Notes: generated by a model from the sequence alone, not told the origin. Positions 55 through 22,043 are shown, counted from the first letter of the stretch. The stretch is 22,043 nt of DNA from an uncultured Deinococcales bacterium (GCA_964244895.1 CAXTKV010000074.1:1-22043), one strand, 5' to 3'. Made by a program: numbers and translations.

Positions 55-420
55 GACTTTCTCCTCTATCGTTGCTCGAGCATGGCTCGAGCAGACTGCC
101 CGTGATGGGCCTTGAAATGCGCCGACTGTCAATGTTCCTTGGGCGTTCGCTTCGGAACAAACCGATTGGAGCTTGTTATCCGGAAGCGTTGACCCAGGGG
201 CCGATTTCCGAGCTCGTCTTTGGTGACTCGAGAGACACCCGAGACGGCAGCCTTGAAAGGTTACATGAAGGTTTCAGGGAAATCAAGCCTTCCTTTGAAG
301 AGCGCACGGGCATCGATCGTGGTCGTGGATTCCCGATTGTTTGCGCAGCCGATAAAAAACGCGTCCGACCAATCGCGAATCGCCACGAACGTCCCTCGAG
401 GTGCGAGCAGCTCTCGCGTC

Positions 421-470
421 GAAGATTCCTGAGCTGCACAGAAACGAAGATTCCCGAGCTGTACAGAAAC
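421..470. repeat. 25-bp tandem direct repeat, 2 copies
   Basis: GAAGATTCCTGAGCTGCACAGAAAC (421-445) and GAAGATTCCCGAGCTGTACAGAAAC (446-470), 2 mismatches; followed by a GGGACGGTGTTC half-site. Confidence 0.9.
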
Positions 471-532
471 GTTCGGGACGGTGTTCGCGATTCCTCGAGC
501 GCCTCTCCCCTGCCATGTTTTACAATCCCAGG

Positions 533-1075
533 ATGCTTCGGCTCGAGCAACCCGACGCACGATACCGCGAGACTTACCTCGGAGCCCTGTCCGAATTCCG
601 CGCGGAAGGCAACCTGCGCGCGCTGCACGCTGAACTTTTTCACGCAGCACCGGATTTCGAGGCGTTCGTGGCGCGGCTTCGGGAAAAAACGGATCGCGCC
701 ACGTTGACCAAAAGCCTCGTGCCGGAAAGCGTGCTGTGGCTTGTTCAGGACGAAACCCTGATCGGGCGCGTCTCCGTGCGGCACGAACTGAACGCCAGCC
801 TACGAGAATTGGGCGGTCACATCGGCTACGAGATTCGCCCCTCCAAACGCCACCAGGGTTTCGGCACGCGAGCGCTCAGAATAGCCTTAGCCTTCGCTCA
901 ATCTCTGGGCATCGAACGCGCGCTGCTGACCTGCGACGCCGACAATCTGGGTTCGAGGAAAATCATCGAAAAAAACGGTGGCGTTCTTCAGGACGAGTTC
1001 CAACCTGCGGGCTCGAGCAAGTACCATCGGCGCTACTGGATCGATCTTTCAGGCCCGATCAATCCCGCGCCCTGA
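533..1075 (+). CDS. GNAT family N-acetyltransferase
   Basis: Motifs IGRVSVRHELN, GGHIGYEIRPSKRHQGFG (acetyl-CoA binding Q/RxxGxG-like), LLTCDADNLGSRKIIEKNGG. Start moved from 401 to ATG 533, which lies 6 nt after TACAAT (521-526). Confidence 0.9.
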   Translation: MLRLEQPDARYRETYLGALSEFRAEGNLRALHAELFHAAPDFEAFVARLREKTDRATLTKSLVPESVLWLVQDETLIGRVSVRHELNASLRELGGHIGYEIRPSKRHQGFGTRALRIALAFAQSLGIERALLTCDADNLGSRKIIEKNGGVLQDEFQPAGSSKYHRRYWIDLSGPINPAP

Positions 1076-1133
1076 GTTCAGATCAATGCTCGAGAAGTCC
1101 GCCGTGAACGGTGTTCTCGAGCATACGAGCATC

Positions 1134-1230
1134 CATCCCGCTATCGTGAACAACCTTCAGGATCTTTCGCCGTGGTCAGTCGAATGTACTCACCTCGAGA
1201 TCCCTGAATGCGAACTCATCGGGATGACGG
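1134..1230. repeat. Imperfect long inverted repeat, CGTC/GTCAT-type REP-like element
   Basis: CATCCCG (1134-1140) pairs with CGGGATG (1220-1226); TTCAGGATCT (1156-1165) pairs with AGATCCCTGAA (1198-1208); ends GGGATGACGG. Confidence 0.55.
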
Positions 1231-1274
1231 CCATTGTTTACTGCAGCCGCCAATCTCGATCACATGTTCGCGCG

Positions 1275-1338
1275 AGGGTAACCACAAGGGTTACCCCTAC
1301 ACGACAGGGTTCTTGTACGGGCTCTATGACCTGCCCTC
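1275..1338. repeat. GTAG-type REP-like palindrome plus a degenerate inverted partner
   Basis: Minus strand 1300-1275 reads GTAGGGGTAACCCTTGTGGTTACCCT, near-identical to 11748-11773; degenerate GTACGGGC...GCCCT at 1315-1338. Confidence 0.75.
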
Positions 1339-1368
1339 AAAGCGTTCTCGAGGGCACGACGACGGCAC

Positions 1369-1418
1369 GAGAACACCGTCTGGCACGCGTATCTAAGAAT
1401 GCGTGCTGGACGGTGTTT
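1369..1418. repeat. Dispersed palindromic element (AACACCGTCCAGCACGC family)
   Basis: GAGAACACCGTCTGGCACGC-N12-GCGTGCTGGACGGTGTT, just downstream of the S41 peptidase stop. Confidence 0.9.
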
Positions 1419-1426
1419 CGCTTCAT

Positions 1427-2707: not shown

Positions 2708-2790
2708 GCGGGTCTCCTCGGGGTGCGGAATGCTCTGTCTTACACCAGATCGAGCAATTCGTAGGCGTCGAAGGTCGCAGTCGAGGATCG

Positions 2791-2811
2791 GTCAGAAGTC
2801 AGAGGTCAGAA
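2791..2811. repeat. Heptamer tandem repeat (GTCAGAR)x3
   Basis: GTCAGAA GTCAGAG GTCAGAA; complementary copies CTCTGAC CCCTGAC at 2963-2976. Confidence 0.6.
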
Positions 2812-2900
2812 GCGAACCTCGAGTTCGCTGGGGACGGCGCACGCGCTCAGGCTCGAGGGCAAGAGTGCTTTTGCTCGAGATTTACCCGGAAGCCAGCACT

Positions 2901-2958
2901 GAGAACACCGTCCCACACGCAATTTTTTGAATCCATAAAACGCTGTCCTGGACGGTCT
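2901..2958. repeat. Dispersed palindromic element, degenerate copy
   Basis: GAGAACACCGTCCCACACGC ... GTCCTGGACGGTCT. Confidence 0.8.
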
Positions 2959-2987
2959 TTGCCTCTGACCCCTGACTTTTAAGCATC

Positions 2988-2996
2988 TGATACGAT
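2988..2996 (+). promoter_or_regulatory. Putative extended -10 promoter for ndk
   Basis: TGaTACGAT matches TGnTAnnnT about 77 nt upstream of the ndk ATG. Confidence 0.5.
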
Positions 2997-3072
2997 GCGC
3001 GGCGGTGCGCTCGGGGAACACCTAGGCGCTCGAGACGCGCAAATCGCGTTAAAACGCTGGCAGGAGGATCAC

Positions 3073-3486: not shown

Positions 3487-3498
3487 GCGTCCGAATGA

Positions 3499-3533
3499 CC
3501 GTCCCGGATCTCGCGTCCGGGACGGCTTTTTTT
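3499..3533 (+). terminator. Rho-independent terminator of ndk
   Basis: 10-bp stem CCGTCCCGGA/TCCGGGACGG, 7-nt loop, followed by T7. Confidence 0.9.
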
Positions 3534-4133: not shown

Positions 4134-4193
4134 GGCCGAGACGAGCAGCAGGATCGCGGGCTGGACGCGCCCGAAAACCACCTGAACCGACAC

Positions 4194-4742: not shown

Positions 4743-4802
4743 GAGAACACCGTCCCACACGCATTCTCTCGAGGTTTAATTCTCGCGCGCAGGACGGTGT
4801 TC
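4743..4802. repeat. Dispersed palindromic element
   Basis: GAGAACACCGTCCCACACGC ... GCGCGCAGGACGGTGTTC, abutting the stop of the SUKH-like gene. Confidence 0.85.
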
Positions 4803-4803
4803 G

Positions 4804-5406
4804 TTACAATGCCTCTCCTCTACAAACTTGCAATACGAACTCCCAATAACTTCCGGGTGTGACCGCTTTCGGGTCAAGCGCTCGTATCACACTTTCGAGT
4901 AGATTTCCTCGCTCTCGAGTCTCATCAACAGTGAAAGCATCAATCGGAGAGGAGTCAAAAATAATTCGAAAGGCAAGTATACTCTCGAAGAACGCCTGAA
5001 AACTTGAGCTTACGTAGTTTGGTTGCAGATTTTCGTCCGCCAACTCGGGGATTTCTTCAACAATTATTCCGGATCTATCATCGAAACACAGGATTTGCCC
5101 TGATCCACCCTCAGCACCACTCCAGCAGATAACCCATAGTGAAGCCCACGACTGAGAAATGAATTCGTCTTCGTCTCCAGATCCACGCATTAACTCTTCT
5201 AGATTTACCAAACCTTCGGTCTTAAACCAATCAAGTTGAAGGGTTAACCAGTTTTTCTTTTGAATGACGATACGCCAAGGCAACCCCGCCTCGAGCAAAA
5301 CCGCTTTAGCTTCGCTCGAGATCGCAACTTTCTCGAGCGAAGCCGCAGGTGGTTTTATCCACAGGTCGTCTCCCCAGCGATTTCTAAATTCTTCTGGCGT
5401 CATCAT
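4804..5406 (-). CDS. SUKH-4-like (SMI1/KNR4 superfamily) immunity protein
   Basis: Pattern AKAVLLEAGLP ... ILCFDDRSGII ... YVSSSFQAFFESI ... LDPKAVTPGSYW resembles SUKH-4 proteins; ATGA overlap with the speA stop; visibly AT-richer than its neighbours. Confidence 0.7.
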   Translation of the reverse strand: MMTPEEFRNRWGDDLWIKPPAASLEKVAISSEAKAVLLEAGLPWRIVIQKKNWLTLQLDWFKTEGLVNLEELMRGSGDEDEFISQSWASLWVICWSGAEGGSGQILCFDDRSGIIVEEIPELADENLQPNYVSSSFQAFFESILAFRIIFDSSPIDAFTVDETRERGNLLESVIRALDPKAVTPGSYWEFVLQVCRGEAL

Positions 5407-7319
5407 TCCAGATACGTGTACCCGACCAATTCCTCGTCGTAATGCTCGATGAAGCTGTCGCCCTCCCACGGCCCTAACACGCCGCGTTTGATCGCGTCCT
5501 GTACGGCGTCGCGGGCGCTGGCGGAAAGCTGGGGTGCGCTGTAGCCCATGCTTTCGATCAACCGTCGGGCTTTCTGGCCGCGCACGAAATTCTCGAGTTC
5601 CAACTGTCCGTCATCGGTGACGCGGACATGCACTTCGTTGACCTTGCCGAACAGGTTGTGGGCGCTGCCGAGCACGTCCTGGTACGCGCCGACCAGGAAC
5701 ACGCCCAGGTAGTAGGGTTCGTCGCCGCGCAGTTCGTGCAATGGCAGGGTTTTTTGAACGTCGCGCAGGTCGATGAATTTGTCGATCTTGCCGTCAGAAT
5801 CGCAGGTGATGTCCACGATGGTTGCGCGCCGGGTGGGGCGTTCGTTCAACCTTGAAAGCGGCACGATCGGAAAGAGCGCGTCTATCGCCCAGTGGTCGGG
5901 CAGGCTCTGAAACAGGCTAAAGTTGCAGATGTACTTGTCGGCCAGCAGTTCGGCCAGGTCTTCAAATTCGTCGGGCACATATTTCGCGTCGGCGTCGCGG
6001 ATGACGGTGGCGACGCGTAGGGCGATGCGGTTGAACAACTCCTCGCCTCGGGCGCGGTCGCGCAGGCTCAGGTAGCCCAGGTCGAAGAGGTTGTGCATCG
6101 TGTTCTTGTTGTCCGCCGCGTCGAAGTACGCTTCGCGGTAGTTGCGGACGTTGACGTTCCGGAGGATTTCCTCGAAGTCGGTGATCAGTTGGTGCTGGTC
6201 GGGCTCGCCGGGCGTCAGGTCTTCGGGGAAGCGCGCGGGGCCGGTCACGTCCAGCACGGGCACGACCAGGATCGCGTGGTGCGCGGTCACGGCGCGACCG
6301 GATTCGCTGACGATCACGGGGAAGGCGTCCGGCTCGAGCTCGGCGTTCTTGCAGGTTTCGGAGACGCTATAGACGACATCGTTGGCGTATTCCTGCAGGG
6401 AATAGTTGCTCGAGGTGTAGAAGGTCGTTTTTGAGCCGTCGTAATCCACGGCCAGTCCACCGCCGACGTTCAGGTACTTGATCGGCACGCCCAGTTCGCG
6501 CAGTTCGGCGTAGGTCTGGGCGGCCTCGCGCACGGCGATCTTAATTTTGCGGATGTCGGTCAGTTGGCTACCGACGTGGCAGTGGATCATCACCAGGGCA
6601 TCCGTCAGGTTCTCTTTTTCCAGCCGCCGCACGACGGCCAGGAGTTCGGTGGCGTTCAGCCCGAATTTGGCCTGGTCGCCGCCGGATTCTTCCCATTGAC
6701 CTGAACCTCTCGCGTGCAGTTTGAAGCGCACGCCGATGGCGGGTTTGACGCCGACCTCGCGGGCGATGCGCAGCACGCGCTCGAGTTCAGAAAATTTTTC
6801 CAGCGTGATGACCACGTTGCGCCCGAGCTTGCGGCCCCACAGGGCCAGGCGCACGAAACCGTCGTCCTTGAAGCCGTTGCAGCACAAGAGCGCGTCCGGG
6901 TTCATGTCCTGCGCCAGACAGAGCGCCAGTTCGGCCTTCGATCCCGCTTCCAGGCCGTGCGCGTAGGCCATGCCCGCCTTGGCGATGGTCTCGACGACCA
7001 CGCGGCGTTGGCTGACCTTGATCGGGTAGACGCCCTGGTACTTTCCGGGGTAAGCGTATTCGGAAATGGCTTGCTGGAAGGCTTCGTTGAGCTGGCGCAC
7101 GCGCGACTCGAGGATCTGCGGGAAGCGCACGATCATCGGCAGGCTCTCGCCCCTGGCGACCAGGCGATCGATCACGTCCTGAACGGCGACGGCGTGTTCA
7201 CCGCCGAGCGTCGCTTGGAGCTTGCCGGATGTGCCGACGCGGAAGTAGCCGCCGGACCAGTTGTGGACGCCGTACAGTTCCGTCGCGTCCGACACCGTGA
7301 AACGCTCGAGCGTGTTCAA
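5403..7319 (-). CDS. speA: Biosynthetic arginine decarboxylase
   Basis: GVYPIK (PLP Lys), GLEAGSKAEL, HCHVGSQ, NVGGGLAVDYDG, ESGRA, NFSLFQSLPDHW, CDSDG, GAYQDVLG; TTG start at 7319 with AGGAGG at 7330-7335. Confidence 0.96.
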   Translation of the reverse strand: MNTLERFTVSDATELYGVHNWSGGYFRVGTSGKLQATLGGEHAVAVQDVIDRLVARGESLPMIVRFPQILESRVRQLNEAFQQAISEYAYPGKYQGVYPIKVSQRRVVVETIAKAGMAYAHGLEAGSKAELALCLAQDMNPDALLCCNGFKDDGFVRLALWGRKLGRNVVITLEKFSELERVLRIAREVGVKPAIGVRFKLHARGSGQWEESGGDQAKFGLNATELLAVVRRLEKENLTDALVMIHCHVGSQLTDIRKIKIAVREAAQTYAELRELGVPIKYLNVGGGLAVDYDGSKTTFYTSSNYSLQEYANDVVYSVSETCKNAELEPDAFPVIVSESGRAVTAHHAILVVPVLDVTGPARFPEDLTPGEPDQHQLITDFEEILRNVNVRNYREAYFDAADNKNTMHNLFDLGYLSLRDRARGEELFNRIALRVATVIRDADAKYVPDEFEDLAELLADKYICNFSLFQSLPDHWAIDALFPIVPLSRLNERPTRRATIVDITCDSDGKIDKFIDLRDVQKTLPLHELRGDEPYYLGVFLVGAYQDVLGSAHNLFGKVNEVHVRVTDDGQLELENFVRGQKARRLIESMGYSAPQLSASARDAVQDAIKRGVLGPWEGDSFIEHYDEELVGYTYLE

Positions 7320-7489: not shown

Positions 7490-7494
7490 TCGAT

Positions 7495-8133: not shown

Positions 8134-8209
8134 ACTGGGCAACCGTGAACTGGGCAACCGTGAACTGGGCGCGGGTGGTGGTGGCGGTGGTGGTGGCGGT
8201 GGTGGTGAC
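8134..8209. repeat. Two adjacent in-frame tandem repeats: 15-bp x2.5 and 12-bp x3
   Basis: ACTGGGCAACCGTGA at 8134 and 8149, partial at 8164; GGTGGTGGTGGC at 8174, 8186 and 8198 (last with one mismatch). Confidence 0.9.
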
Positions 8210-9131
8210 GCTCGCGGGGTGCGTCAGTCCCGCGCTCGAGCCAGACCCGTTCGGCTCGAGCCTCATTCAACCTGCACCATCCTTATCGCGCGTGCTCGAG
8301 ACGGCGCGGGACGTGATCGGGTCGGAGCGGACGCTCGCGCTGAGAGAATTGTTGAACCGGAACGTGCCGGAGGGCGCACCGATGGCGAACCTGCCGGGGT
8401 TCGATTCCAGGCGCGCGGAAATCCAGGCCGTCTGGCGGTGGCTGATGTTCATTCGGGGCGTACACGACGCGCGTGCCCAGCTCAAGACGATGGCGCTTCG
8501 GGATCGGACGATGGCGCTCGCGTCCAACGCACCGTTTCCGCTCGAGCCTCGGGCGGTGCTGGAACACCGCGCGGAAATCTGGTGGGCGGCGCGCGCCGCG
8601 AAGCTGCCGCCGGAGGTGCTGGCGGCCATCGTGGACGACGAGCAATCGGGCGCGAACCTGATGCTGGGCCTGTCCGGTGCGTTGCGCGCGCTGGCGGACG
8701 GTCTGGCGCTGACCGAAGCCCGACTGACGGGACGCTCGAGCCTCTCGGGCGGATTTTCCATGACGCTCGGGATCGCACAGATGTCGTGGCGCGACGCGAT
8801 GGGTCAACGCGCGCGTCTGGACGCGATGAACGCGCGGTTCGAGCCGCGCGTTCCGACGAGCGAACTCGAGATGCGCGCGTCGCTCGAGCGCCCCGATGCG
8901 AACCTGATGCTGACCGCCAGCCGATTGCGCGGTTACCTGAACGCCAGCCTGCACCGTCCCAGCCTGGACGTGCGCGCCTTCCCGAGCGGTTGGGCGGCGC
9001 TCGAGGGGCCGTTGTGGCACAACCGTCCCGATCTGGCGCGCGCGCGCCAGGTCAACGCCTACGCTTTCCACGCGTTTTTCAAGGCGTGCCTGTACGCGGT
9101 GCTGCTCGAGGATAAACGCGTCGAGGACTGA
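8145..9131 (+). CDS. Putative lipoprotein with a lysozyme/lytic-transglycosylase-like domain
   Basis: Hydrophobic stretch plus LAGC lipobox; LPPEVLAAIVDDE, LGIAQM and LERPDANLMLTASRL resemble SLT-fold motifs. Start could be GTG 8145 or 8160. Confidence 0.65.
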   Translation: MNWATVNWARVVVAVVVAVVVTLAGCVSPALEPDPFGSSLIQPAPSLSRVLETARDVIGSERTLALRELLNRNVPEGAPMANLPGFDSRRAEIQAVWRWLMFIRGVHDARAQLKTMALRDRTMALASNAPFPLEPRAVLEHRAEIWWAARAAKLPPEVLAAIVDDEQSGANLMLGLSGALRALADGLALTEARLTGRSSLSGGFSMTLGIAQMSWRDAMGQRARLDAMNARFEPRVPTSELEMRASLERPDANLMLTASRLRGYLNASLHRPSLDVRAFPSGWAALEGPLWHNRPDLARARQVNAYAFHAFFKACLYAVLLEDKRVED

Positions 9132-9177: not shown

Positions 9178-9436
9178 CCCCGCGGTTCCACGGCGTACGG
9201 AACCCGGCCACAAAACCGATCTTTGCGGGGCGCAATTCACGGCCCGTTTCGAGATGCTCGAGCCTCTCTTTTCCAGGTCTTCCTGATCTTCGTTCAGAAT
9301 CTTTCGCTGTCGCTCGGTCGATCCCGCGCAACGCGGACGCCTCAGGGTGACGAGGAAGCTCGAGGCGCGACCAGTTCGGGGTTTTCGCGTTAAACCCCGA
9401 ACTCGAGACACCGCTATGACTCGAGGCCAGACCGCT

Positions 9437-10405: not shown

Positions 10406-10569
10406 GCCCGAGTGTAATCGGGCGAACCGCTCGAGCGCCAACGCGGCGTCCGACTCGGACTTGTCGAGCGACCCGTTTTCGTGTGACACTCTGCGAACCA
10501 GCTTCGGTTTCAGGCCGAAACTGATCAAAAAACTCGAGACGTGACCTCAGTTTCTCGAGCGGAGGGCGT

Positions 10570-11727
10570 ATGAAGAACAGGTTCCTGTCGTTCGGACTGG
10601 CGGCACTCGCGGTCGCCACCATCGGGCTGGTTTCGAGCATTCCGGCTCAGAACGCGAAACTCAAGGTGGCCTTCATTTACATCGGCCCGCCCGGAGATTA
10701 CGGCTGGACCTACGCGCACGAACAGGGCCGGTTGGCCTTGCAAAAAGCCCTGCCGGACATCGAAACCATCAAGGTCGAGAACGTGCCCGAATCTCAGGCC
10801 GGGCCGTTTCTGGACCAGGTCGTCAAGGAAGGCGCGAAAGTCGTGTTCACCACCTCTTTCGGCTACATGGATGGCACCCTAGAAGCCGCCAAGAAGTACC
10901 CGGACGTGATCTTCGCGCACGCCACGGGCTTCAAACGCGCACCCAACATGGCGACGTACATGATCGACCTCTACCAGATGTACTACCTGAACGGCATGAT
11001 CGCCGGGGCGCTCAGCAAGACGGACAAACTCGGGTACGTCGCGGCCTTCCCGATCCCGGAAGTCAAACGCGACATCAACGCCTTCGCGCTGGGAGCCAGG
11101 GCCACCAACCCGAAAGCCACCGTCAGCGTCACCTGGATCAACGCCTGGTTCGATCCGAACAAGGCCAAGGAAGCCACCGAAGCCCTGCTGGCCGACGGCG
11201 CGGACGCTTTTGCCTTCCACGAGGACACGCCGACCGTGATCCAGACCGCCGCCGCCAAGGGCGCGATCGGTTTTTCGCACAACAGCCCGATGCAGAAATT
11301 CGCGCCGAAAGCCGTCCCGAGCGGACAGCTTTCGGATTGGGCTCCGTACTACATCGATTTCGTGAAGAAAGTTCAGGCCGGAACCTACACCACCAAAAAC
11401 CTGGCGGATGTGGACTACTGGGGCCGGATGAGCGAGGGCGGCGCGCAACTTGGCGGGGAATACGGCGTGCCGATCAACCCGGAATTCGTCGGCGCCCTGA
11501 AAGCCAAGAAGGTCGGTTCGCAGAGCGTCTACGACCTGGTGATGTCCCGCATGCAGCAGATGAGCGCCAAGGGCGGCCCGAAGTTCGAGCCGTTCAGCGG
11601 CCCGATCAAGGATCGCAACGGCGTGACTCGCGTGGCCGCCGCGAAATCCTTGACGCAGGGCGAACTGTTCAGCATGGAATGGGCCGCGCCCGGCGTGGTC
11701 GGCCCGTGGGCGAACGAACCCAAGTGA
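10570..11727 (+). CDS. BMP family ABC transporter substrate-binding protein (purine/nucleoside type)
   Basis: KVAFIYIGPPGDYGWTYAHEQGR, FTTSFGYMD, IPEVKRDINAFALGA, WFDP; signal peptide; GGAGGG RBS. Confidence 0.93.
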   Translation: MKNRFLSFGLAALAVATIGLVSSIPAQNAKLKVAFIYIGPPGDYGWTYAHEQGRLALQKALPDIETIKVENVPESQAGPFLDQVVKEGAKVVFTTSFGYMDGTLEAAKKYPDVIFAHATGFKRAPNMATYMIDLYQMYYLNGMIAGALSKTDKLGYVAAFPIPEVKRDINAFALGARATNPKATVSVTWINAWFDPNKAKEATEALLADGADAFAFHEDTPTVIQTAAAKGAIGFSHNSPMQKFAPKAVPSGQLSDWAPYYIDFVKKVQAGTYTTKNLADVDYWGRMSEGGAQLGGEYGVPINPEFVGALKAKKVGSQSVYDLVMSRMQQMSAKGGPKFEPFSGPIKDRNGVTRVAAAKSLTQGELFSMEWAAPGVVGPWANEPK

Positions 11728-11747
11728 TCCCGGCCTGACGGGTCTTT

Positions 11748-11773
11748 GTAGGGGCAACCCTCGTGGTCGCCCT
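11748..11773 (+). repeat. GTAG-type REP-like palindrome
   Basis: GTAGGGGCAACCCTCGTGGTCGCCCT; homologous to 1275-1300. Confidence 0.8.
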
Positions 11774-11820
11774 TCCCTCGAGCCTTGTTCGATCACCCTC
11801 GCGAAAACGCCCTCGACACG

Positions 11821-11870
11821 AGAACACCGTCCAGCACGCGAGTCTGAATATGCGTGCTGGACGGTGTTCT
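11821..11870. repeat. Dispersed palindromic element (best consensus copy)
   Basis: Perfect 19-bp inverted repeat AGAACACCGTCCAGCACGC, 12-nt loop, between convergent genes. Confidence 0.95.
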
Positions 11871-13098: not shown

Positions 13099-14421
13099 TC
13101 ACTCGTAGCGCAGTGAATCCACGGGGTCGAGCTTCGCAGCGCGGGACGCGGGGTAATAGCCGAAGAAAATCCCGACCGCCGCGCTGAAGCCGAAAGCCAG
13201 GAGAACGCTGCCCGTGCCGATGACCGGCGTGATGCTCAATCCCTTGCCCGCCGCGAACGCCAGCCCCGTGCCGATCACGATGCCGATGATGCCGCCACCG
13301 ACGGACAGCACGAAAGCTTCGACCAGGAATTGCGTCAGGATGTCGCGCGGTTTTGCGCCGAGCGCCTTGCGGATGCCGATCTCGCGGGTGCGCTCCGTGA
13401 CGGAGACCAGCATGATGTTCATGATGCCGATGCCGCCGACCAGCAAACTGATGCCCGCCACGCCGCCCAGGAACAGCGTCAGGATCTGCGTGATCTGGTT
13501 GACGCTGGCCAGCGCGTCCGCCTGGTTCTGAACGTTGAAATCGTACTCGTCGGGCGTGGCTTTCTTATGGCGCACGGCCAGCAGGTCGGTGATGTCCTGC
13601 TGAAGCTGTTTGAGGTCGTTCTTGTCGGTGCCCTGAATGAAAGCGCTGCTGACGGTCTTGCCGCTGTTGGTGCCGCTCGCCTCCTGCCGCCCGAGGCGCT
13701 GGAGGTAGGTGTTGAGCGGCACGTAAATCGCGGAGTTCGGGCTGCCGAAACCGCTCGCGCCCTTGTCGGGCAGCACGCCGACGACGGTGAAGCTGACGCC
13801 GTTGATCTTGATTTTCTGACCCAGCGCGTCGCCGTTGTCGCCGAACAGATCCGTCTGGATTTGCGTACCGATCACCGCCACGCGTTTGCGGCTGGTGTTG
13901 TCGGCGTCGGTGAACCACGCGCCGCGTTCGACCTCGCTGTTGCGCACCACGGCGTAACCGGGCCAGGTTCCGGTGATGCTGGCGTTGGTGTTCTGGCTGT
14001 TGGCCTTGACCTGAATGTTGCGTTGCAGCGAGGGCGCGATGCCGCTGATGCGGGATGCGAACTGCGTCTGGATGGCTTTGATGTCGTCCAGCGTGATCGA
14101 GGGTGCGCCGAAGGAGCGCACGATTCCGGGCGGGCCGCCGTTGCGCGATTGACCGCTGGCGACGGTCAGCAAGTTCGTGCCCAATCCCTCGAGTTGCTTG
14201 GTGATGCCGCCCGTCGCGCCCGATCCCAGGCTGGTCAGGGCGATCACGGCGGCCACACCGATGATCACGCCGAGCGCGGTCAGCATGCTGCGCAACGGGT
14301 TTCCCCGAATCGCGCGCCAGGCGATGCCGACCGTCTGGATCAGGTTCAGTCCCGCCACGCTCGAGCGGGTTTTCTGCACGGGCGGGCTGGCGTCCAGTTG
14401 GCGGGCTCGCATGGCGCTCAT
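13099..14421 (-). CDS. MacB/FtsX-type ABC transporter permease
   Basis: LRSMLTALGVIIGVAAVI, GGIGIMNIMLVSVTERTREIGIRKALGA, QFLVEA, PASRAAKLDPVDSLRYE; AGGAG before ATG 14421. Confidence 0.95.
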   Translation of the reverse strand: MSAMRARQLDASPPVQKTRSSVAGLNLIQTVGIAWRAIRGNPLRSMLTALGVIIGVAAVIALTSLGSGATGGITKQLEGLGTNLLTVASGQSRNGGPPGIVRSFGAPSITLDDIKAIQTQFASRISGIAPSLQRNIQVKANSQNTNASITGTWPGYAVVRNSEVERGAWFTDADNTSRKRVAVIGTQIQTDLFGDNGDALGQKIKINGVSFTVVGVLPDKGASGFGSPNSAIYVPLNTYLQRLGRQEASGTNSGKTVSSAFIQGTDKNDLKQLQQDITDLLAVRHKKATPDEYDFNVQNQADALASVNQITQILTLFLGGVAGISLLVGGIGIMNIMLVSVTERTREIGIRKALGAKPRDILTQFLVEAFVLSVGGGIIGIVIGTGLAFAAGKGLSITPVIGTGSVLLAFGFSAAVGIFFGYYPASRAAKLDPVDSLRYE

Positions 14422-14438
14422 GACGCTCCTCTTTTCTG

Positions 14439-14490
14439 GGGAACACCGTCCAGGACGCAAATGAATCCGTGCGTCCTGGACGGTGTTCCC
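14439..14490. repeat. Dispersed palindromic element inside the operon
   Basis: Perfect 21-bp inverted repeat GGGAACACCGTCCAGGACGCA, 10-nt loop. Confidence 0.95.
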
Positions 14491-14503
14491 GTAAATTCGT
14501 GGC

Positions 14504-15265
<762 letters not shown>

Positions 15266-16612
15266 TTAAGGCCCGCCAATCGCGCTGGTGCTCGAGCCCT
15301 TCTGCTGGCGCGTGGGCAGCACGATGGTTTCGCCCGCCTTGAGGCCGTCCGTGACGACGATGTTCGTGCCGTCGTCCGGGCCGGTCGTGACGCGGCGCGT
15401 GTCCACGGTCTTGCCGTCGCTCGTCTTCTGTCCAGCCGGGAGCTGCACGTCCACGTAGGATCGGGTGCGAACCGTCTGGATGGCGCGTTTGGGGATCGTA
15501 ATAGCGTCCTGGATTTCCTGGCTGACAATTTCCGCCTCGGCGGTCATGCCGGGGCGGAGCGCGCGAGCCTGGTTGTCCACGGTGACGGTCGCGTAGAAGA
15601 CCGCGATGTTCGAGACGACCGTGGCGGACGGGCTGATGCTGGTGACGGTTCCGGTGAAGGTTTGACCGGGCAGCGCGTCCAGCGTCAGGTCGGCCTTCTG
15701 ACCGAGCTTGACCTGCGCGATCTGGGTTTCGTCCACCTGGACGGGCATCTGAATCTTGGAGTCATCAATCAGCGTCACCAGCGCGCCACCACCGGACGAG
15801 CTTCCCGTGCCGAGCGCCGAACCGCCGACCGCTCCGTTGACCGCCGAGACCACGCCAGTGAAGGGCGCGTAGACTTTCGTGTTGGAAAGATCCGTCTGGG
15901 CGCTCTTGAAGCTGATGGCGGCCTGATCCACGGCGTACTGCAGGTTCTGGAGGTTCTGTGCGCCCGCCGCGTTCTTCAACGGCTGGGACTGGCGGGCCGC
16001 GTTGAGCGCCGCGCGGGCGCTTTGAAGGTTCGTCTGCGCCTGATCGAGGCTGGATTGCGCGTCCTTGACGGTTTGCGCGCTGACGCCGCCCGCCGCGAAC
16101 AGGTTCTTCTGGCTTTGCAGGTTGGTGGTAGCGGTCTGAACGCTCAATTGCGCGTTGTCGAATTGCGCCTGCGCGCTGGCGACTTGCTGATTCTGCGAGG
16201 CGCTGTCGCTCGAGGCGGTCGCGCGTTGGCCCGCGAGTTGGGCTTGCGCTTTGGAAAGCGCCAACTGCGCGTTGTCCAACGAGCGCTGGTAGTTGGTTGG
16301 ATCGAGCTTGGCCAGGAGCTGTCCCTTGGTGACGCGGTCGCCGACCTTGACGATCGAGAGGATCGTGCCGTTGACCTGCGGTTTCACGTCCGCGCTGTTG
16401 ATCGCGGACAGCGTGCCGGGGCCGGTCACGCTGACCCGGAAGACGCCCTGGGTGGCGGTCGCGGTTTCGACCTTGGCGGCGGTGGACGCGCTGGTATTTC
16501 CCTGCGGGAGCTTGATGACGCCGGTCAGCAGCAGCGCCGCGGCGGCCACCGGCACGAGCAGCAAGCTCCACCACGGGCTGATGCGTTTTCTGGGTTGTTG
16601 TGCGGAAATCAT
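15266..16612 (-). CDS. Efflux periplasmic adaptor (MacA-like membrane fusion protein)
   Basis: N-terminal TM segment, lipoyl-like halves VKVGDRVTKGQLL and VYAPFTGVV, long alpha-hairpin, VDETQIAQVKLGQ, LRPGMTA; ATGA overlap and AGGAGG. Confidence 0.94.
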   Translation of the reverse strand: MISAQQPRKRISPWWSLLLVPVAAAALLLTGVIKLPQGNTSASTAAKVETATATQGVFRVSVTGPGTLSAINSADVKPQVNGTILSIVKVGDRVTKGQLLAKLDPTNYQRSLDNAQLALSKAQAQLAGQRATASSDSASQNQQVASAQAQFDNAQLSVQTATTNLQSQKNLFAAGGVSAQTVKDAQSSLDQAQTNLQSARAALNAARQSQPLKNAAGAQNLQNLQYAVDQAAISFKSAQTDLSNTKVYAPFTGVVSAVNGAVGGSALGTGSSSGGGALVTLIDDSKIQMPVQVDETQIAQVKLGQKADLTLDALPGQTFTGTVTSISPSATVVSNIAVFYATVTVDNQARALRPGMTAEAEIVSQEIQDAITIPKRAIQTVRTRSYVDVQLPAGQKTSDGKTVDTRRVTTGPDDGTNIVVTDGLKAGETIVLPTRQQKGSSTSAIGGP

Positions 16613-17715
16613 GATGCGCCTCCTTTGAGACCGATCTGATCCACCCCGGACGCGGTCGAGAGCGACGCGAGCGCCCGCAGGTACGAATCCGTGGATTGAG
16701 TGTACGTATAACGCGCGCGGAGCGCCGTCACCTGGGTGGTCTGGAGTTGCACCGCCGAGATCGTGCCGCTCTTGAATTTGGCCTGATCCTGCGACAGGGA
16801 TTCGGTGGCGTTATCCAGGTTCTGCTTGGCGATTCGCACCTGCTCCAGCGCGTTCGAGACGTTGCGGTTGGCGTCTCTCAGGCTGGTCAGGGCGTTGGTG
16901 CGGGTGGTGTCCAGGGTGCGCTGCGCGTTCTCGAGTTGGGTCTTGAAGTCGCGCAGGGTGGCGGGCGGGGTGTACTCGTTGTCGGAAAGGCGCACGTTCA
17001 GGTTGGCCAGGTCTACGGCCTGGGACGCCTGAAGCACGCTGGGCAGGCGCGTCTCGAGGCTTTTTTCCAGGGTGGCCTGGTCGATCTTGACTTCCTTGAA
17101 AGCGGGCGGGGCGCCGACCGTCAGGTTGCCGGTGTTCGTGCCGAGCATGACCTCGAGCCGGTTCGAGAGGATCGGCAGTTGGGCTTTGGCGTCCGCCAGG
17201 CTCTGCTTGCTGGCTGAAAGGGTCGAATCGGCCTTGCTGACATCGAGTTGCGTGCCGTTCTTGGCGGCCAGTTTGGCCTTGGCGACATCCAGGTTTTTGG
17301 CATCCAGATCGAGTTGCGCCTGCAAGACCTTGACGTTCTCCTGGCCTTCAAAAAGGTTCAGGTACGCCCCGGCGACGTTCGACATGACGCTCAATTTTTG
17401 CGCCTCGAGCTGCGCGGTGTTGAGCGCCAGGGTCTGCTGGGCTTGCGTCATGGCGATCACCAGCGTGCTGGGGTCGGATTGCTTGGCGGCCAGGTCGGCC
17501 TGGGCGTTCTTCAGGGTCGCCTGGGACGTGGCCAGATCGGGGCCTTTGGTGAAAGCCTGAGTCATGCTGCTCTCCAGCGTCAGTACCGTCTGCGCGGAGG
17601 TCAAGCCGATCGCGAGCGCCGCGCCAAGCGCCGCCAGGTAGGCGGATCGCCTCGAGAGAACCGTGCTGGACGGTGTTTTTGATTGGGCTCGCGTCTGGGA
17701 CGGTGTCGGGCTCAT
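16609..17715 (-). CDS. TolC/OEP family protein, short paralog
   Basis: Signal peptide, LTLESSMTQAF, VAGAYLNL, FKSGTISAVQL OEP motifs; GGGAGG RBS before ATG 17715. Alternative start 17802 (TGATG overlap) cannot be excluded. Confidence 0.82.
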   Translation of the reverse strand: MSPTPSQTRAQSKTPSSTVLSRRSAYLAALGAALAIGLTSAQTVLTLESSMTQAFTKGPDLATSQATLKNAQADLAAKQSDPSTLVIAMTQAQQTLALNTAQLEAQKLSVMSNVAGAYLNLFEGQENVKVLQAQLDLDAKNLDVAKAKLAAKNGTQLDVSKADSTLSASKQSLADAKAQLPILSNRLEVMLGTNTGNLTVGAPPAFKEVKIDQATLEKSLETRLPSVLQASQAVDLANLNVRLSDNEYTPPATLRDFKTQLENAQRTLDTTRTNALTSLRDANRNVSNALEQVRIAKQNLDNATESLSQDQAKFKSGTISAVQLQTTQVTALRARYTYTQSTDSYLRALASLSTASGVDQIGLKGGAS

Positions 17716-17801
17716 ATTGTTCCTCCCTGAGAGGTCTGGTTGGCTGGTGGGCGCTGCGGCGGGCGCAGCTTCGCGGATGGTCGCGGTTTCAGGCTGCGGC
17801 A

Positions 17802-19223
17802 TCAGCGTGTCCCCGGTATCAGGTTGAGCGACCCGATGGCGTTCTGAAGCTGATAGACCGCGCTGACCTGCGCTGCGAGCGCCGTTTCGAGGCTGGTCTG
17901 CGCTTGAAGCAGGTTGACGCGGGCGGCTTCCAGGTCAATCGCGGTGTTCAATCCGGCCTTGTTGCGGGCGGTGGCGGTTTCATAGGTTTTCTGGGCGCTG
18001 TCCACGGCGCTCTGGGCGGCCTTGATCTGGGCGTTGGCGATCTGGGCGGTGCTGAGGCGCTGGGCAACATCGATGGCGGCGGCGCGGCGCGCGGTCTCGA
18101 GGCTGGCCTTGGCGGCGTCCAATCCGGTCTGGGCGGCGTTGACGCTGGCGTCCAGGGATGGCCCGAGCACCGGGAAGCTGGCCGAGAGCGAGACATTCAA
18201 TCCCGTCCCGCCGGAACTCGAGCCGCTCTGCACCACGGGCACCGTGCCGGTCAATGCCGTGGTTCCCGACTGAAAGTTGAGGCTTCCGGTCAGGCTCGGG
18301 CTGCCGACCGATCCGGTCGCGCTCAACTGCCCCACCCCGAGGCTCAGGCTGGCATTGGGCAGCACCCGGTTGCGCTGGGCGTTGCCCAACGCGTCCTCGG
18401 CGTCCTGCACCCTGGAAACCGCCTGGAGCACGTCGCTGCGGCGCTCCAGTGCGGCTTTGATTAGCGCCTCCGGGGTTCCCTGCGGTAGCTCGAGCGCGGT
18501 CGGTGCGGTCGTGAACTTCGTGCTGGCCGAAACACCGAGCTGGGCGAGCGCGATATCGAGCGCGTTCTGCGAGGAGAGCGTCGCCGATTGCGCCGTGGCC
18601 AGGTTCTGCTGGGCGGTCAGCAAGTCCGCAAAGGCGATCTGGCCGTTCTGGTATTGCAGGTTGGCCACGCGCAATCGGCTGGTCAAGAGCGCCTCGTTGG
18701 CCTGGGCGGCCTGAAGGCTGAGGCTCGAGTTGCGGGCGCTGAAATAAGAGCTGACGGTCGTGAGCGCCAGCGAGTTGCGCGCGTCGCGCTGGGTCAGGCT
18801 GGCGCGTTCGAAGGCGCGCTGAGCGCTGCGGATCGCGTCGTAGGAGGCCGACCACGGCAGCACGTTGGCGCTGGCCGTGACCGAAACCGAGACGCTGTTG
18901 GATGAGCTTCCGCTGCTCGGGAAGGTTCCACCGTAACTGCTGCCCGCCGAGAGGTTGATGCCGGTCGCGGCCTGCGCGGTCTCGAGGTTGCGCTGGGCGG
19001 TCTGGTAGGTCAGATCCGCCGATTGCCAGTCCGGTGTGGCCTGCACGGCTGCGAACGCGCTCTGAAGGCTGTAGCCCGCGTCCTGCGCCAGCGCCGCGCT
19101 GCCCAGCAGGGCCAGCAGCGCGACTCGCGGCACTCGCGCAAAGGCTCGAGCCCGCCAGCCTCGGGGGTTCCTGCGGGCCGATGAATGTCGTTGAATGTCT
19201 AGGTTCGTAAGTGGGGGTTTCAC
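17802..19223 (-). CDS. TolC/OEP family outer membrane efflux protein
   Basis: Signal peptide, YQNGQIAFADLL, ALERRSDV, KAGLNTAIDL, alternating beta-strand segments; GTG start at 19223 with AGGAGG at 19232-19237. Confidence 0.87.
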   Translation of the reverse strand: MKPPLTNLDIQRHSSARRNPRGWRARAFARVPRVALLALLGSAALAQDAGYSLQSAFAAVQATPDWQSADLTYQTAQRNLETAQAATGINLSAGSSYGGTFPSSGSSSNSVSVSVTASANVLPWSASYDAIRSAQRAFERASLTQRDARNSLALTTVSSYFSARNSSLSLQAAQANEALLTSRLRVANLQYQNGQIAFADLLTAQQNLATAQSATLSSQNALDIALAQLGVSASTKFTTAPTALELPQGTPEALIKAALERRSDVLQAVSRVQDAEDALGNAQRNRVLPNASLSLGVGQLSATGSVGSPSLTGSLNFQSGTTALTGTVPVVQSGSSSGGTGLNVSLSASFPVLGPSLDASVNAAQTGLDAAKASLETARRAAAIDVAQRLSTAQIANAQIKAAQSAVDSAQKTYETATARNKAGLNTAIDLEAARVNLLQAQTSLETALAAQVSAVYQLQNAIGSLNLIPGTR

Positions 19224-19260
19224 ATCGGGTTCCTCCTGCGGTTCAGTCTTCACGCGACCC

Positions 19261-19299
19261 GTGGACTCACAACGAAGGTCTTGTGAAGGTTGTGTGAAC
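19261..19299 (-). promoter_or_regulatory. Putative OmpR-family direct-repeat operator upstream of the efflux operon
   Basis: Hexamers at exact 11-bp spacing on + strand: GTGGAC 19261, ACGAAG 19272, GTGAAG 19283, GTGAAC 19294. Confidence 0.6.
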
Positions 19300-19326
19300 T
19301 GCATTTCTGGATTCGCCCGACACCAG

Positions 19327-19381
19327 CACCGTTCAGCACAGACCGCACTAAACGCGACGAACATCGTCCTGGACGGTATTC
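19327..19381. repeat. Dispersed palindromic element, degenerate copy
   Basis: CACCGTTCAGCAC ... CGTCCTGGACGGTATTC. Confidence 0.7.
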
Positions 19382-19533
19382 TTTTTGAGCGCCCCAGACA
19401 GTTCCAGGATTCCCGGCTTCAGTTCTGGCCCCAGCATCCGGTTTTGGATTCAGCGAACCGAAGTGCGAATGCGAATGTCCTGAACCCCAGGGAAAACCGT
19501 CGGACGCGCGCGCCCTGGAAGCACTGGAGCTGA

Positions 19534-19572
19534 GTTCACGGAATCTTCACGGCGCGCCCCGCGAACCTTCAC
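19534..19572 (+). promoter_or_regulatory. Putative OmpR-family direct-repeat operator upstream of the response regulator
   Basis: GTTCAC 19534, CTTCAC 19545, CTTCAC 19567 (11- and 22-bp spacing); mirror image of the 19283-19299 box. Confidence 0.6.
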
Positions 19573-19644
19573 ACGCAGCGAGGAAACTTCAGGGGCATGG
19601 AAACCCCGACCCCACATCAGACATCCGGCGTTACACTGCCCACC

Positions 19645-20322
19645 ATGGGCGCGTGCATTCTGGTGGTCGAAGACGAACTCGAGATCTCCGAGGTCGTCGA
19701 AGGCTACCTGCGCCGCGACGGTTTTCGCACCGAACGCGCCACGGACGGCGCGCGCGCCCTGGAGCTGTTCCGCGCCGCCAAGCCCGACCTGGTGCTGCTG
19801 GATATCATGCTGCCCGGCGTGGATGGCCTGGAAGTGCTGCGGCGCATCCGGGCGCTGGCCTCGACGCCCGTGATCATGCTGACCGCCCGCGCGGAGGACA
19901 TCGACAAACTGCTGGGATTGGAACTGGGCGCGGACGATTACGTGGTCAAACCCTTTAGCCCGCGCGAGGTCGTGGCTCGCGTCAAGGCCGTGCTGCGCCG
20001 CACCAAACACGATGAACCCAAAACCGTCCACCGCGTCGGACCCCTGGAAATTGACACGCGCCAGGTGATCGCCACGCTGGACGGCGCGCGGCTCGATTTG
20101 ACCCCGACCGAATTCAAATTGCTCGAGCACCTGGCTGGAGAACCCGGACGGGCGTATTCCAGGGCGGAATTGTTAGAGGCCGCGCTGCCCGATTCCGATG
20201 CGCTGGAACGCGTGGTGGATGCGCACCTGAAAAACTTGCGGCGCAAGCTAGAGCTGGGCGGCGCGCCGGAACTCCTCGAAACCGTGCGCGGCATCGGTTA
20301 CCGATTGTGGGTGAACGCTTGA
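19645..20322 (+). CDS. OmpR/BaeR-family response regulator
   Basis: ILVVEDE, DLVLLDIMLPGVDG (phospho-Asp), GADDYVVKPFSPREV, winged helix ending ETVRGIGYRL; ATG 19645 is 7 nt after TACACT. Confidence 0.96.
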   Translation: MGACILVVEDELEISEVVEGYLRRDGFRTERATDGARALELFRAAKPDLVLLDIMLPGVDGLEVLRRIRALASTPVIMLTARAEDIDKLLGLELGADDYVVKPFSPREVVARVKAVLRRTKHDEPKTVHRVGPLEIDTRQVIATLDGARLDLTPTEFKLLEHLAGEPGRAYSRAELLEAALPDSDALERVVDAHLKNLRRKLELGGAPELLETVRGIGYRLWVNA

Positions 20323-21665
20323 ACCCATCCGAACCCTTGCGCGGTGCGCCCGAGAAGACCCTTCCCGACGCGACCCCCGCGATCTCGAGAGGCCCTCGCG
20401 CGGCGGGTCTGATCTCGAGGATCTCGCCGTTGCGCGGGATCGCGGCGCGGCTGGCCATTGCGATGGTCGTGGTCGCGGTCGGTTCGGTCGGGGTGGTGGC
20501 GATCATCCTGAGCCTGACGGCGGAATCGCGCTTTCGCAACCCGCCGCCGAACGTGGTCGAGATGCGCAGGATCTTCACGGTGCTGCGCGAACGCTGCACG
20601 GAAAAAGTCAAGATCGGGCCGCAAGGCGAACTGAACGGCATGATCTGCCCGCCGGACACGCTGGTCAGCCTGCCCAGCGGTGCGCCCAACGCGACCAGTT
20701 TGCTGCTGCTGGGCGGCGGCAAGAAACCCGATCCGTTCGACCCGCGCGAATGGGTCATCCCGACGACCTTTTTGGGCATGGGCATCGCTGCGGCCTTCGC
20801 GGTGCTGCTGGCGCTGGTGATGGCGCGCCGCATCGCGCGACCGATCCAGGCCGTGTCCATCGCGGCGAACCGCATGGCGGCGGGCAACCTGGCCTCGCGC
20901 GTGACGCTGCCCACATTCGTCACCAGGGACGAGGACGAGACCGCCACCCTTGCGCGCAGCTTCAACACGATGGCCGAATCCCTGGAACGCCAGGAGGAGA
21001 CCCGCAAGGCCATGATCGCCGATATCGCGCACGAACTGCGCACGCCGTTGGCGGTCATGCAAGCCAAGCTCGAGGCCCTGGAAGACGGCGTGCTGGAACT
21101 TTCGGTGGATGAAATCAAGCGCCTGCAACACCAGACGCACGTGCTTTCCAGGTTGGTGGACGACCTGCGCGTGCTGTCGCTGGCCGAGGCCGGTCAGCTC
21201 GCCCTGGAGCGCCGCCGCGTCAAGCTCGAATCGTTGGCGCGCAGCGTGACGCTGACCTTTAACGAACGCGCGCACTCCAAGAACATTCAGCTCGAATTCG
21301 TCTCGAGCGGCGAGATCACGCTCGATGCCGACCCCGACCGCATCACCCAGGTGCTCTCCAACCTGTTGGACAACGCCATCCAGCACACGCCCGCGTCGGG
21401 TTGCGTGACCGTCAGCCTCGAATCCCTCGAGAAAAACGCGCAGTTGAGCGTGTCCGACACGGGTTCCGGTTTGCCGCCCGAAACGATCGATCGCGTCTTC
21501 GACCGCTTCTACCGCGCGGACGCGTCCCGCAACCGCTCGAGCGGCGGTTCCGGTCTGGGTCTGGCCATCGTGCGCGCGCTGGTCGAGTTGCACGGCGGCA
21601 GGGTTCGCGCCCAGAACGGCGCGGGCGGCGGCGCGGAGTTCGTCGTGCTGTTGCCTCGCGCGTAA
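20319..21665 (+). CDS. BaeS-like sensor histidine kinase
   Basis: Two TM segments, HAMP, H-box ADIAHELRTPL, N-box NLLDNAI, DTGSG, GSGLGLAI; TTG start overlapping the regulator stop (alternative GTG 20307). Confidence 0.95.
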   Translation: MNPSEPLRGAPEKTLPDATPAISRGPRAAGLISRISPLRGIAARLAIAMVVVAVGSVGVVAIILSLTAESRFRNPPPNVVEMRRIFTVLRERCTEKVKIGPQGELNGMICPPDTLVSLPSGAPNATSLLLLGGGKKPDPFDPREWVIPTTFLGMGIAAAFAVLLALVMARRIARPIQAVSIAANRMAAGNLASRVTLPTFVTRDEDETATLARSFNTMAESLERQEETRKAMIADIAHELRTPLAVMQAKLEALEDGVLELSVDEIKRLQHQTHVLSRLVDDLRVLSLAEAGQLALERRRVKLESLARSVTLTFNERAHSKNIQLEFVSSGEITLDADPDRITQVLSNLLDNAIQHTPASGCVTVSLESLEKNAQLSVSDTGSGLPPETIDRVFDRFYRADASRNRSSGGSGLGLAIVRALVELHGGRVRAQNGAGGGAEFVVLLPRA

Positions 21666-21677
21666 AGCCGATGACTC

Positions 21678-21719
21678 GAGAATACCGTCCAGCACACGAA
21701 TTAACCCATGCGTGCTGGA
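21678..21719. repeat. Dispersed palindromic element with truncated or interrupted right arm
   Basis: GAGAATACCGTCCAGCAC ... GCGTGCTGGA; the missing ACGGTGTTTC appears at 21795-21804. Confidence 0.8.
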
Positions 21720-21808
21720 ACGCGAGTAGCCCGTGAGCGATCCCACCCGTGAGGTGCGTCTTGGGATCAAGAAAGTGCTGTCTGTTGAGCAAGAACGGTG
21801 TTTCCTGT

Positions 21809-22043
21809 TCACGTCCGCTCGAGCGTCAGTTTGCGCCCGTCACCGAACAACTCCAACCTGATCAGCACGGGATGCTCCAGGTCGTCACGCAAGGGTTCAC
21901 CCCACTCGATCACGGTGAATCGCGCATCCTCGATCAGTTCCTCGAGTCCCATCTTGAAGAGCGTCCGTGCGTCCGGAAGGCGGTAGGCGTCGACGTGAAC
22001 CATTAAGCCTTGCGGCGTCGGGTACTGGTGAATGTAGGTGTAG
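21809..22043 (-). CDS. tsaE: tRNA threonylcarbamoyladenosine biosynthesis ATPase TsaE, 3' part
   Basis: YTYIHQYPTPQGLMVHVDAYRL ... VIEWGE matches the TsaE (SPT)YT, HxDxYRL and IEW motifs. Confidence 0.9.
   Translation of the reverse strand, partial: YTYIHQYPTPQGLMVHVDAYRLPDARTLFKMGLEELIEDARFTVIEWGEPLRDDLEHPVLIRLELFGDGRKLTLERT

Follow-up and report, generated by a model that had tools for sequence, protein, structure and literature searches.

A close known counterpart of the DNA word treated here is HIP1 (GCGATCGC), the highly iterated palindrome of cyanobacteria, together with the alternate HIPs of that group (PMC4390886; PMC5861425; PMC13756078). In these accounts a single palindrome stands far above all others, is enriched in every reading frame and in non-coding DNA, shows stronger codon conservation within the motif than beyond it, spreads through substitutions, and has a function described as unsettled; HIP abundance is given as roughly 1,000 to 2,000 or more copies per Mb (PMC4390886). 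Here we describe the palindrome CTCGAG in a 22,043-bp stretch of DNA from an uncultured Deinococcales bacterium (GCA_964244895.1 CAXTKV010000074.1:1-22043; the whole stretch is called the window), in the genome from which it comes, and across the order. CTCGAG resembles HIP1 in all of the above respects, but it belongs to another phylum, is a 6-base word of 67% GC, and reaches 4,300 to 6,800 copies per Mb compared with 300 to 2,700 for HIP1, in a family of genomes that has no shared methylase and strongly avoids other GC-rich palindromes. It is not HIP1 proper, being a different word from a non-cyanobacterial genome in which CGATCG is under-represented (observed/expected ratio, O/E, of 0.32). 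The dominance over other words, the copies per Mb, the presence in all frames and in non-coding DNA, and the codon conservation are those of the HIP class, while no motif methylase of the known CTCGAG or TCGA enzyme types was found in the 19 family genomes; CTCGAG works like HIP1 and, for lack of such a methylase, is not filed here as a HIP member. HIP1 has stood unexplained for three decades, has been described from cyanobacteria, and is accompanied there by methylases. A case of higher density from a different phylum, apparently without a methylase and graded across one order from strong through moderate and spared to avoided, is a natural experiment on the origin of such words. A literature search, with most subscription papers outside its reach, found no description of a CTCGAG excess in Deinococcales.

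Other described systems share part of this behavior. Chi sites, as characterized for B. subtilis AddAB (PMC3321194), are likewise short over-represented words that need no methylation and that occur in a host with AddAB, the AddB subunit of which has a Chi-scanning domain. CTCGAG differs in being palindromic, which leaves no room for strand skew, in being far denser, and in that some addB-bearing relatives have no excess. The uptake sequences of Pasteurellaceae and Neisseria (PMC2817400) are likewise genome-wide, approximately double the frequency of the peptides they encode, prefer poorly conserved genes, and accompany competence genes. Their cores are 9 to 10 bases long and non-palindromic, whereas CTCGAG is a pure 6-base palindrome with free flanks, much denser, and avoided in competent Deinococcus. 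Finally, CTCGAG is the XhoI/PaeR7I site and the target of orphan CTCG(m6A)G methylases in Marinithermus and Meiothermus, so that the same sequence is methylated in three cultured relatives (PMC4752239). Here, restriction sites are avoided whereas CTCGAG is amplified, and searches of the family genomes found no XhoI-family nuclease (PF04555, 0 of 19) and no close methylase.

The window contains 97 exact copies of CTCGAG between positions 75 and 21946, one per 227 bases and, the word being a palindrome, on both strands. The initial annotation had counted approximately 95 to 100 sites, one per 230 bp, against an expectation of 7 to 8 at 64% GC; the count holds, as does the expectation (7.4 from base composition), with the GC content corrected to 62.7%. 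Dinucleotide shuffles of the window gave a mean of 11.2 and a maximum of 23 copies, and at least 97 copies in none of 100 shuffles. Within 18 of its coding sequences the three frames, Leu-Glu first, hold 40, 2, and 19 sites compared with codon-shuffle means of 10.1, 0.3, and 2.4 and maxima of 22, 3, and 7 (n = 1000), the middle frame not being significant in the window alone. A further 36 sites fall in the 4,580 bases outside these coding sequences.

The excess is genome-wide, in all three frames and between genes. The source genome (G000; 5.12 Mb in 328 contigs, the longest 66 kb, 91% complete) carries 21,883 copies, or 4.27/kb (4,270 per Mb), with an O/E of 9.8 under an order-2 model; the next hexamer reaches 4.3, on 25 copies. 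Genes were our own calls (4,342, 79% coding), a set that misses atypical genes. In 3,684 of these calls the frames hold 10,268, 717, and 3,014 sites against 2,818, 55, and 423 in within-gene synonymous shuffles, an excess of 3.6-, 13-, and 7-fold. Under a dicodon Markov null, which itself already holds five of the six letters, the two minor frames still exceed expectation (717 vs 315, 2.3-fold; 3,014 vs 1,667, 1.8-fold); a codon-pair null does not address the Leu-Glu frame, where the pair is the motif. Between genes there are 3,986 sites compared with 129 to 380 under Markov orders 0 to 2, and short intergenic stretches reach 7.97/kb. The enrichment reported for the window is thus neither a local matter nor one confined to the Leu-Glu frame or, in the other two frames, absorbed by codon-pair preference, and the reading of sites as lying in intergenic DNA and in several frames, beyond any Leu-Glu bias, is borne out.

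The proteome nevertheless carries the mark of the word. In coding DNA, 73% of sites lie in the Leu-Glu frame, and Leu-Glu is the most over-represented dipeptide of the proteome (O/E 2.13, compared with 0.99 for Glu-Leu). The probability of CTC-GAG given Leu-Glu is 0.59 against a baseline of 0.16, flat (0.58 to 0.61) across a codon-bias proxy, and enrichment is 12- to 13-fold in each GC bin up to 70%. Genome-wide, 7-mers containing CTCGAG have maximal-order O/E values of 0.89 to 1.06, so the word is a pure hexamer with free flanks, and a longer motif around it is ruled out. Most other GC-rich 6-base palindromes are avoided (30 copies of CGGCCG, 60 of CCCGGG). GGWCC is likewise strongly avoided in G000, and GAGCTC occurs 0 to 25 times in 16 of the 19 family genomes and 568 times in G000. 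A 1,375-base fragment of 16S rRNA has no CTCGAG.

How the sites are kept was followed in about 130 kb of reference DNA aligned within two sister genera (6 and 4 genomes, 78 to 95% identical). Tip-specific synonymous changes that break CTCGAG numbered 49, compared with 230 expected from matched background (0.21-fold), with ratios of 0.15, 0.26, and 0.25 at the three symmetric positions and 4 transversions against 58. Codons inside the site are conserved at 0.85 to 0.96, the same codons outside at 0.51 to 0.75. A two-state model gave gain at 4 to 12 times and loss at 0.07 to 0.25 times background in 7 of 10 tests (the other 3 were saturated), with odds of 29 to 103. Very probably, then, CTCGAG is under a two-way fixation bias at the DNA level, by which completing mutations are fixed more often and breaking ones less often, and we are similarly confident that this bias acts in all frames, between genes, and in mobile DNA, regardless of the codon habit of the gene. 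The word is kept and renewed strongly enough to alter proteins. Under the model, the pattern reads as selection or as a conversion-like drive, which the present data do not separate; neither protection by itself nor a mutational ratchet working in one direction fits it. Several counts weigh against this picture. Intergenic loss is not clearly reduced (8 vs 11.4), control hexamers show synonymous loss ratios of 0.33 to 5.4 on small counts, and the direct count of gains comprises 24 opportunities (2 vs 1.6), because stable one-letter neighbours are too rare, so that the gain rates depend on the model. Taken with the excess in all frames, the gain and loss figures support the original proposal of HIP1-like behavior and of an active process that both creates and maintains sites.

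The window illustrates these tendencies in the following features:

75..21946, no strand: the set of 97 CTCGAG palindromes, without fixed flanking bases
8145..9131, plus strand: gene without a Pfam match, 9 sites (7 Leu-Glu, 2 in the Ser frame), an example of a site-rich, poorly conserved gene
20307..21665, plus strand: histidine kinase gene, 4 of 6 sites in the x-Ser-Ser/Arg frame
5403..7319, minus strand: arginine decarboxylase gene, 6 sites
10560..11776, no strand: long site-free stretch around the BMP gene, an ordinary tail of the distribution
9257..9425, no strand: 4 sites clustered between genes, representative of the density of 7 to 8/kb outside genes
1372..1417, no strand: inverted repeat of 46 bases resembling repetitive extragenic palindromes (REP-like), the ends of which give near-matches of CTCGAG
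4746-4801, from 9133, 11823-11868, and 14442-14487: further REP-like copies

The histidine kinase gene is an example of an excess that a habit of Leu-Glu codons does not explain. Sites were also said to cluster outside genes and in poorly conserved ones, and they do, at 3.07/kb in 14 genes with a Pfam match, 6.91/kb in 7 without, and 7.48/kb elsewhere. The BMP gene (10570-11727) is free of sites as had been noticed, but it is no special feature, since it encodes a single Leu-Glu pair and belongs to the 26 of 1,485 genes longer than 1 kb in the genome that lack the word. The arginine decarboxylase gene served as the anchor for retrieving orthologous regions of 13 relatives.

Across the order, the preference is graded. 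Among named sequences, those nearest to the window's NDK come from Thermus, Meiothermus, and Trueperaceae. All 19 family genomes carry 4.3 to 6.8 sites/kb at GC contents of 0.44 to 0.63. In a survey of 251 genomes (one unpublished, G250, enters the tallies only), densities per kb were 1.4 to 3.5 in g13, g22, and g24, 0.7 to 2.9 in f4, 0.3 to 2.6 in f2, 0.6 to 1.6 in g9, and 0.01 to 0.5 in f3 (70 genomes). Judged by their size, GC, and consistency with named loci, these groups would be, in that order, Meiothermus-like, Marinithermaceae, Trueperaceae, Thermus, and Deinococcaceae. Codon shuffles on sampled loci gave a multi-frame excess in five genomes (G042, G200, G025, G059, and G103), no Leu-Glu-frame excess in g9, and depletion in g7. 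The Leu-Glu dipeptide follows the same gradient, with an O/E of 2.1 to 2.5 in the family, 1.2 to 1.5 in the middle group, and 0.84 to 1.06 in g7 and g9, the Deinococcus-like and Thermus-like samples. In Thermus-type loci (n = 14, 9 named), CTC-GAG is at 0.82 of expectation (174 vs 211), while its neighbours CTC-GAA, CTC-GAC, GTC-GAG, and TTC-GAG are at 0.00 to 0.08 (CTC-GAC 2 vs 111, GTC-GAG 0 vs 82 expected) and ATC-GAG is at 0.45; CTCGAG is spared there amid a general avoidance of TCGA. Deinococcus-like loci avoid CTCGAG as they do other palindromes (5 vs 54 expected), and the density in Deinococcus-like genomes is never above 0.3/kb. Pooling seven named Trueperaceae loci gives CTC-GAG no greater enrichment (1.65) than its neighbours (1.64 for CTC-GAC). 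The preference thus spans Meiothermus-like and Thermus-like genomes and is reversed in Deinococcus-like ones. Its moderate forms in Meiothermus, Calidithermus, and Allomeiothermus, which are cultured and harmless, together with the sparing in Thermus, make the rival mechanisms testable at the bench.

This distribution, with the family, the Meiothermus group, and Thermus on one side and Deinococcus on the other, leads us to infer a host protein that recognizes the hexamer in its unmethylated state as the source of the bias, and AddAB fits the outline. The AddAB helicase-nuclease digests DNA from a broken end inward and halts at Chi, which here would be CTCGAG. An allele with the word would be spared and used for strand invasion, while one lacking it would be chewed back and replaced using another copy or incoming kin DNA. 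As a palindrome, the word would stop AddAB from both sides, and over time the process would resemble biased gene conversion, or else a weak selection that favours shorter resection, acting on each site. The orphan CTCGAG methylases of some relatives would then serve secondarily to protect an XhoI-type target that occurs in great abundance. On sequence evidence, we consider this whole mechanism, with CTCGAG as a palindromic Chi-like stop, the leading explanation, with a probability of roughly one in three. The specific proposal that CTCGAG is the Chi of Deinococcales AddAB, and that sparing drives the word to one per 150 to 230 bases without a methylase and rewrites proteins on the way, is put forward tentatively. 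If true, CTCGAG would be the Chi sequence of Thermus and Meiothermus, and a drive based on stopping resection could account for the highly iterated palindromes of other polyploid bacteria.

The genes are in place. G000 has addB at C128:11522-14110, followed by addA split over the contig ends of C128 and C123. AddB matches were 43 to 100% identical in 51 of 59 cases (the query's own entry included), and a profile of the family's AddB aligns (E 2.5e-8) with the N-terminal domain of the B. subtilis protein. That domain holds D41, Q42, T44, R70, and F210, which are reported to be needed for Chi recognition (PMC3321194); in our alignment, the Gln aligned to the Chi pocket is nearly invariant and the other pocket positions differ from B. 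subtilis. Deinococcus has been reported to lack addAB and most Thermus to have it (PMC9751324, PMC11143384), and T. thermophilus and D. radiodurans are described as carrying several chromosome copies (PMC6469415). A first metagenome scan with AddB gave no match; a scan with the AddB alignment returned 79 loci, and the 27 shorter than 8 kb were set aside. Among the 52 tested, 37 showed a specific excess or sparing of CTCGAG (index 2.3 or higher), many of these loci being near-duplicates and not independent.

Several observations count against the AddAB proposal. The other 15 of the 52 loci have no specific excess (index 0.9 to 1.6), and while 5 of them have lost the conserved Gln, 10 keep the Gln and its LPxQR pocket, which shows that AddAB is not sufficient. 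CTC-GAG itself falls short of expectation (0.38 to 0.59) in the addB loci of Thermus-like type. The match with Deinococcus amounts to a single loss event and depends on our own group labels. Known Chi sites are non-palindromic and less dense. Neighbouring sites are mildly under-represented, a point in favour of the proposal. Pairs of Leu-Glu sites within 12 bases stand at 0.73 of expectation against 0.83 to 1.52 for five controls, and pairs out to 180 bases at 0.90 to 0.95 (0.93 to 0.95 at 21 to 180) against 0.91 to 1.09; the effect overlaps the control range. Tandem copies are depleted (8 vs 28 expected) because they create the avoided GAGCTC, which also accounts for part of the deficit within 12 bases. 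From published work, a RecB/AddA-like gene pair is reported in 1 of 11 Deinococcus species (PMC6300522), and in T. thermophilus, allele segregation was followed at one marked locus with gene conversion ruled out as its cause (PMC6469415). A role for AddAB is plausible and not sufficient.

A different route to the same pattern would be DNA uptake, in which a competence machinery prefers CTCGAG-rich fragments and recombination spreads the word, as for the uptake sequences of Neisseria and Haemophilus. ComEC is present in 18 of 19 family genomes and G000 has ComEA-like and PilT-like genes, the Leu-Glu distortion and the preference for poorly conserved genes parallel those of uptake sequences (PMC2817400), and HIP1 is reported to raise transformation in Synechococcus (10.1101/2024.09.10.611283). 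However, the ComEC family also matches the D. radiodurans and T. thermophilus controls, and yet Deinococcus-like DNA avoids the word; described uptake cores run to hundreds to thousands of copies of a 9- to 10-base non-palindrome (PMC2817400); and no sequence-reading uptake protein was identified. We consider this drive unlikely.

Doubtful to a similar degree is selection for a sequence-specific chromosome protein, a possibility also raised in the initial annotation, serving packaging or the loading of a repair factor, with a site every 150 to 230 bases. The gain and loss ratios are near those predicted for a selection strength of about 3 to 4, close neighbours are mildly avoided, and a corresponding case is made for HIP1 by Xu et al. 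(PMC5861425). This reading sits poorly with the spacing, which was examined up to 400 bases: gaps are near-exponential (coefficient of variation 0.96), and the number of pairs stays level between 10 and 400 bases. A mobile-looking region is also richer in sites (5.65/kb) than the genome at large, and no candidate protein was found.

The explanation closest to the initial annotation is a methylase-coupled repair ratchet (Elhai 2015; PMC4390886), in which an orphan CTCGAG methylase would mark the strand that mismatch repair keeps. In the order, active CTCG(m6A)G methylases without a listed cognate nuclease modify 94.6% of sites in Marinithermus hydrothermalis, 94.1% in Meiothermus chliarophilus, and 99.5% in M. 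ruber (PMC4752239, tables S3/S4), and G000 encodes NucS and MutS (L467:2508-3257 and L468:2266-4872). Searches used stand-in queries from CTCGAG-rich genomes, an M.TaqI-like protein of G025 (E 2e-126 to M.TaqI) and a methylase of G200, which we take to be PaeR7I-like and which is 49% identical to a methylase beside an XhoI-family gene. The latter query matched 17 of 251 order genomes, mostly in CTCGAG-rich groups, and the M.TaqI-like enzyme has strong matches in all 32 genomes of the Thermus-like g9 and in G025 (L212-L241). Genus g27, which has a methylase, is AT-rich and CTCGAG-enriched.

In the richest family, the picture is different. The M.TaqI-like query gave one weak match in 19 genomes (E 5e-9), the PaeR7I-like one matched G002 alone at 30% identity, and the XhoI-family nuclease, unmatched in the family, occurs in 7 of 251 order genomes, so the suggestion of an XhoI/PaeR7I-type methylase behind the family's excess is not supported. 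Pfam searches of G000 for a cognate enzyme (PF07669, PF01555, PF00145, PF02384, PF02086), with six-frame motif scans, gave type I, BREX-type, N6/N4, D12, and DUF6094 methylases, no conserved orphan methylase, and, in this 91% complete genome, no C5 methylase. Clustering of family methylases, with 30 loci taken per search out of about 65 to 78 matches each and PF02086 searched in 4 family genomes only, gave a largest cluster of 12 open reading frames in two genera and none that spanned the family. In the single-contig genome G006, the enzymes seen were two of the D12 class, one C5, one of type I, and a fused protein of 1,111 residues; G000 has no close match to any of them. Very-short-patch repair was ruled out, as Vsr was absent in 5 of 5 genomes searched. 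In Allomeiothermus silvanus (M. silvanus), CTCGAG is not among the five methylated motifs listed in PMC4752239; in 50 kb of its plasmid CTCGAG is nevertheless the commonest 6-base palindrome (63 vs 17), with frames of 46, 2, and 5 against 24.6, 0.3, and 1.7 expected. A pure ratchet, moreover, would not cut loss fivefold. Methylation goes with CTCGAG in parts of the order and does not appear to be necessary; recent loss, incomplete genomes, an unsearched enzyme family, or methylases of unassigned specificity are possible alternatives. Overall, we rate the ratchet as improbable.

Least probable by far is an indirect origin, through base composition, assembly, REP-like repeats, or a preference for certain codons or amino acids. 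Although most coding sites are Leu-Glu and sites are denser near repeats, the frame, conservation, and cross-genome tests refute all of these, with an excess in all frames, away from repeats, constant across GC bins, and present in 19 of 19 genomes over a wide range of GC, where the repeat core itself is rare.

The REP-like repeat was followed separately. Genome-wide, it is 46 bases long in 311 of 471 complete copies and 56 to 57 in 109, with about 2,300 arm matches. CTCGAG flanks 123 of 942 repeat ends, and both ends in one copy only (about 8 expected). Intergenic density is 8.8/kb near the repeats and 5.7/kb away from them, and the core occurs 0 to 3 times per locus in relatives (27 family loci counted). 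The repeat benefits from the CTCGAG process and is not its source.

Methylase genes and mobile DNA also gave observations of their own. A D12-class methylase of G000 adjoins a NotI-family nuclease (L009:1273-3185), and an AT-rich N6/N4 methylase is paired with a 391-residue gene without a Pfam family (L003:207-2346), the two AT-rich genes of this putative restriction system having no CTCGAG. A DUF6094 methyltransferase adjoins an SNF2/ResIII helicase in an apparent integrated mobile element (L475:8195-11184, G000:C50) with 5.65 sites/kb. In G006, an AT-rich four-gene island with the C5 methylase (L253:853-5747) has 0 to 3 CTCGAG per gene and was probably acquired recently. A CRISPR array of 19 repeats (L627, G000:C36:30816-32156) has a 37-base repeat that holds CTCGAG in most copies shown; its spacers had no match elsewhere in G000, and 5 of 18 carry CTCGAG, against 0.18 expected on composition and 2.3 at the genome-wide rate, which we count in favour of the AddAB mechanism. 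In a scan of viral contigs (DNA of 80 loci from 131 matches), none of the top 25 matched G000 proteins, and L562, L563, L524, and L503 have 4.7 to 6.9 CTCGAG/kb and no palindrome avoidance.

Among the neighbouring genes of the window, a SUKH-4 immunity-family gene (4804-5400, minus strand) lies directly downstream of the arginine decarboxylase gene. Positions 13099-21665 hold a MacB-type ABC exporter with an HlyD adaptor, two outer-membrane efflux proteins, and a divergent two-component system, an ordinary arrangement.

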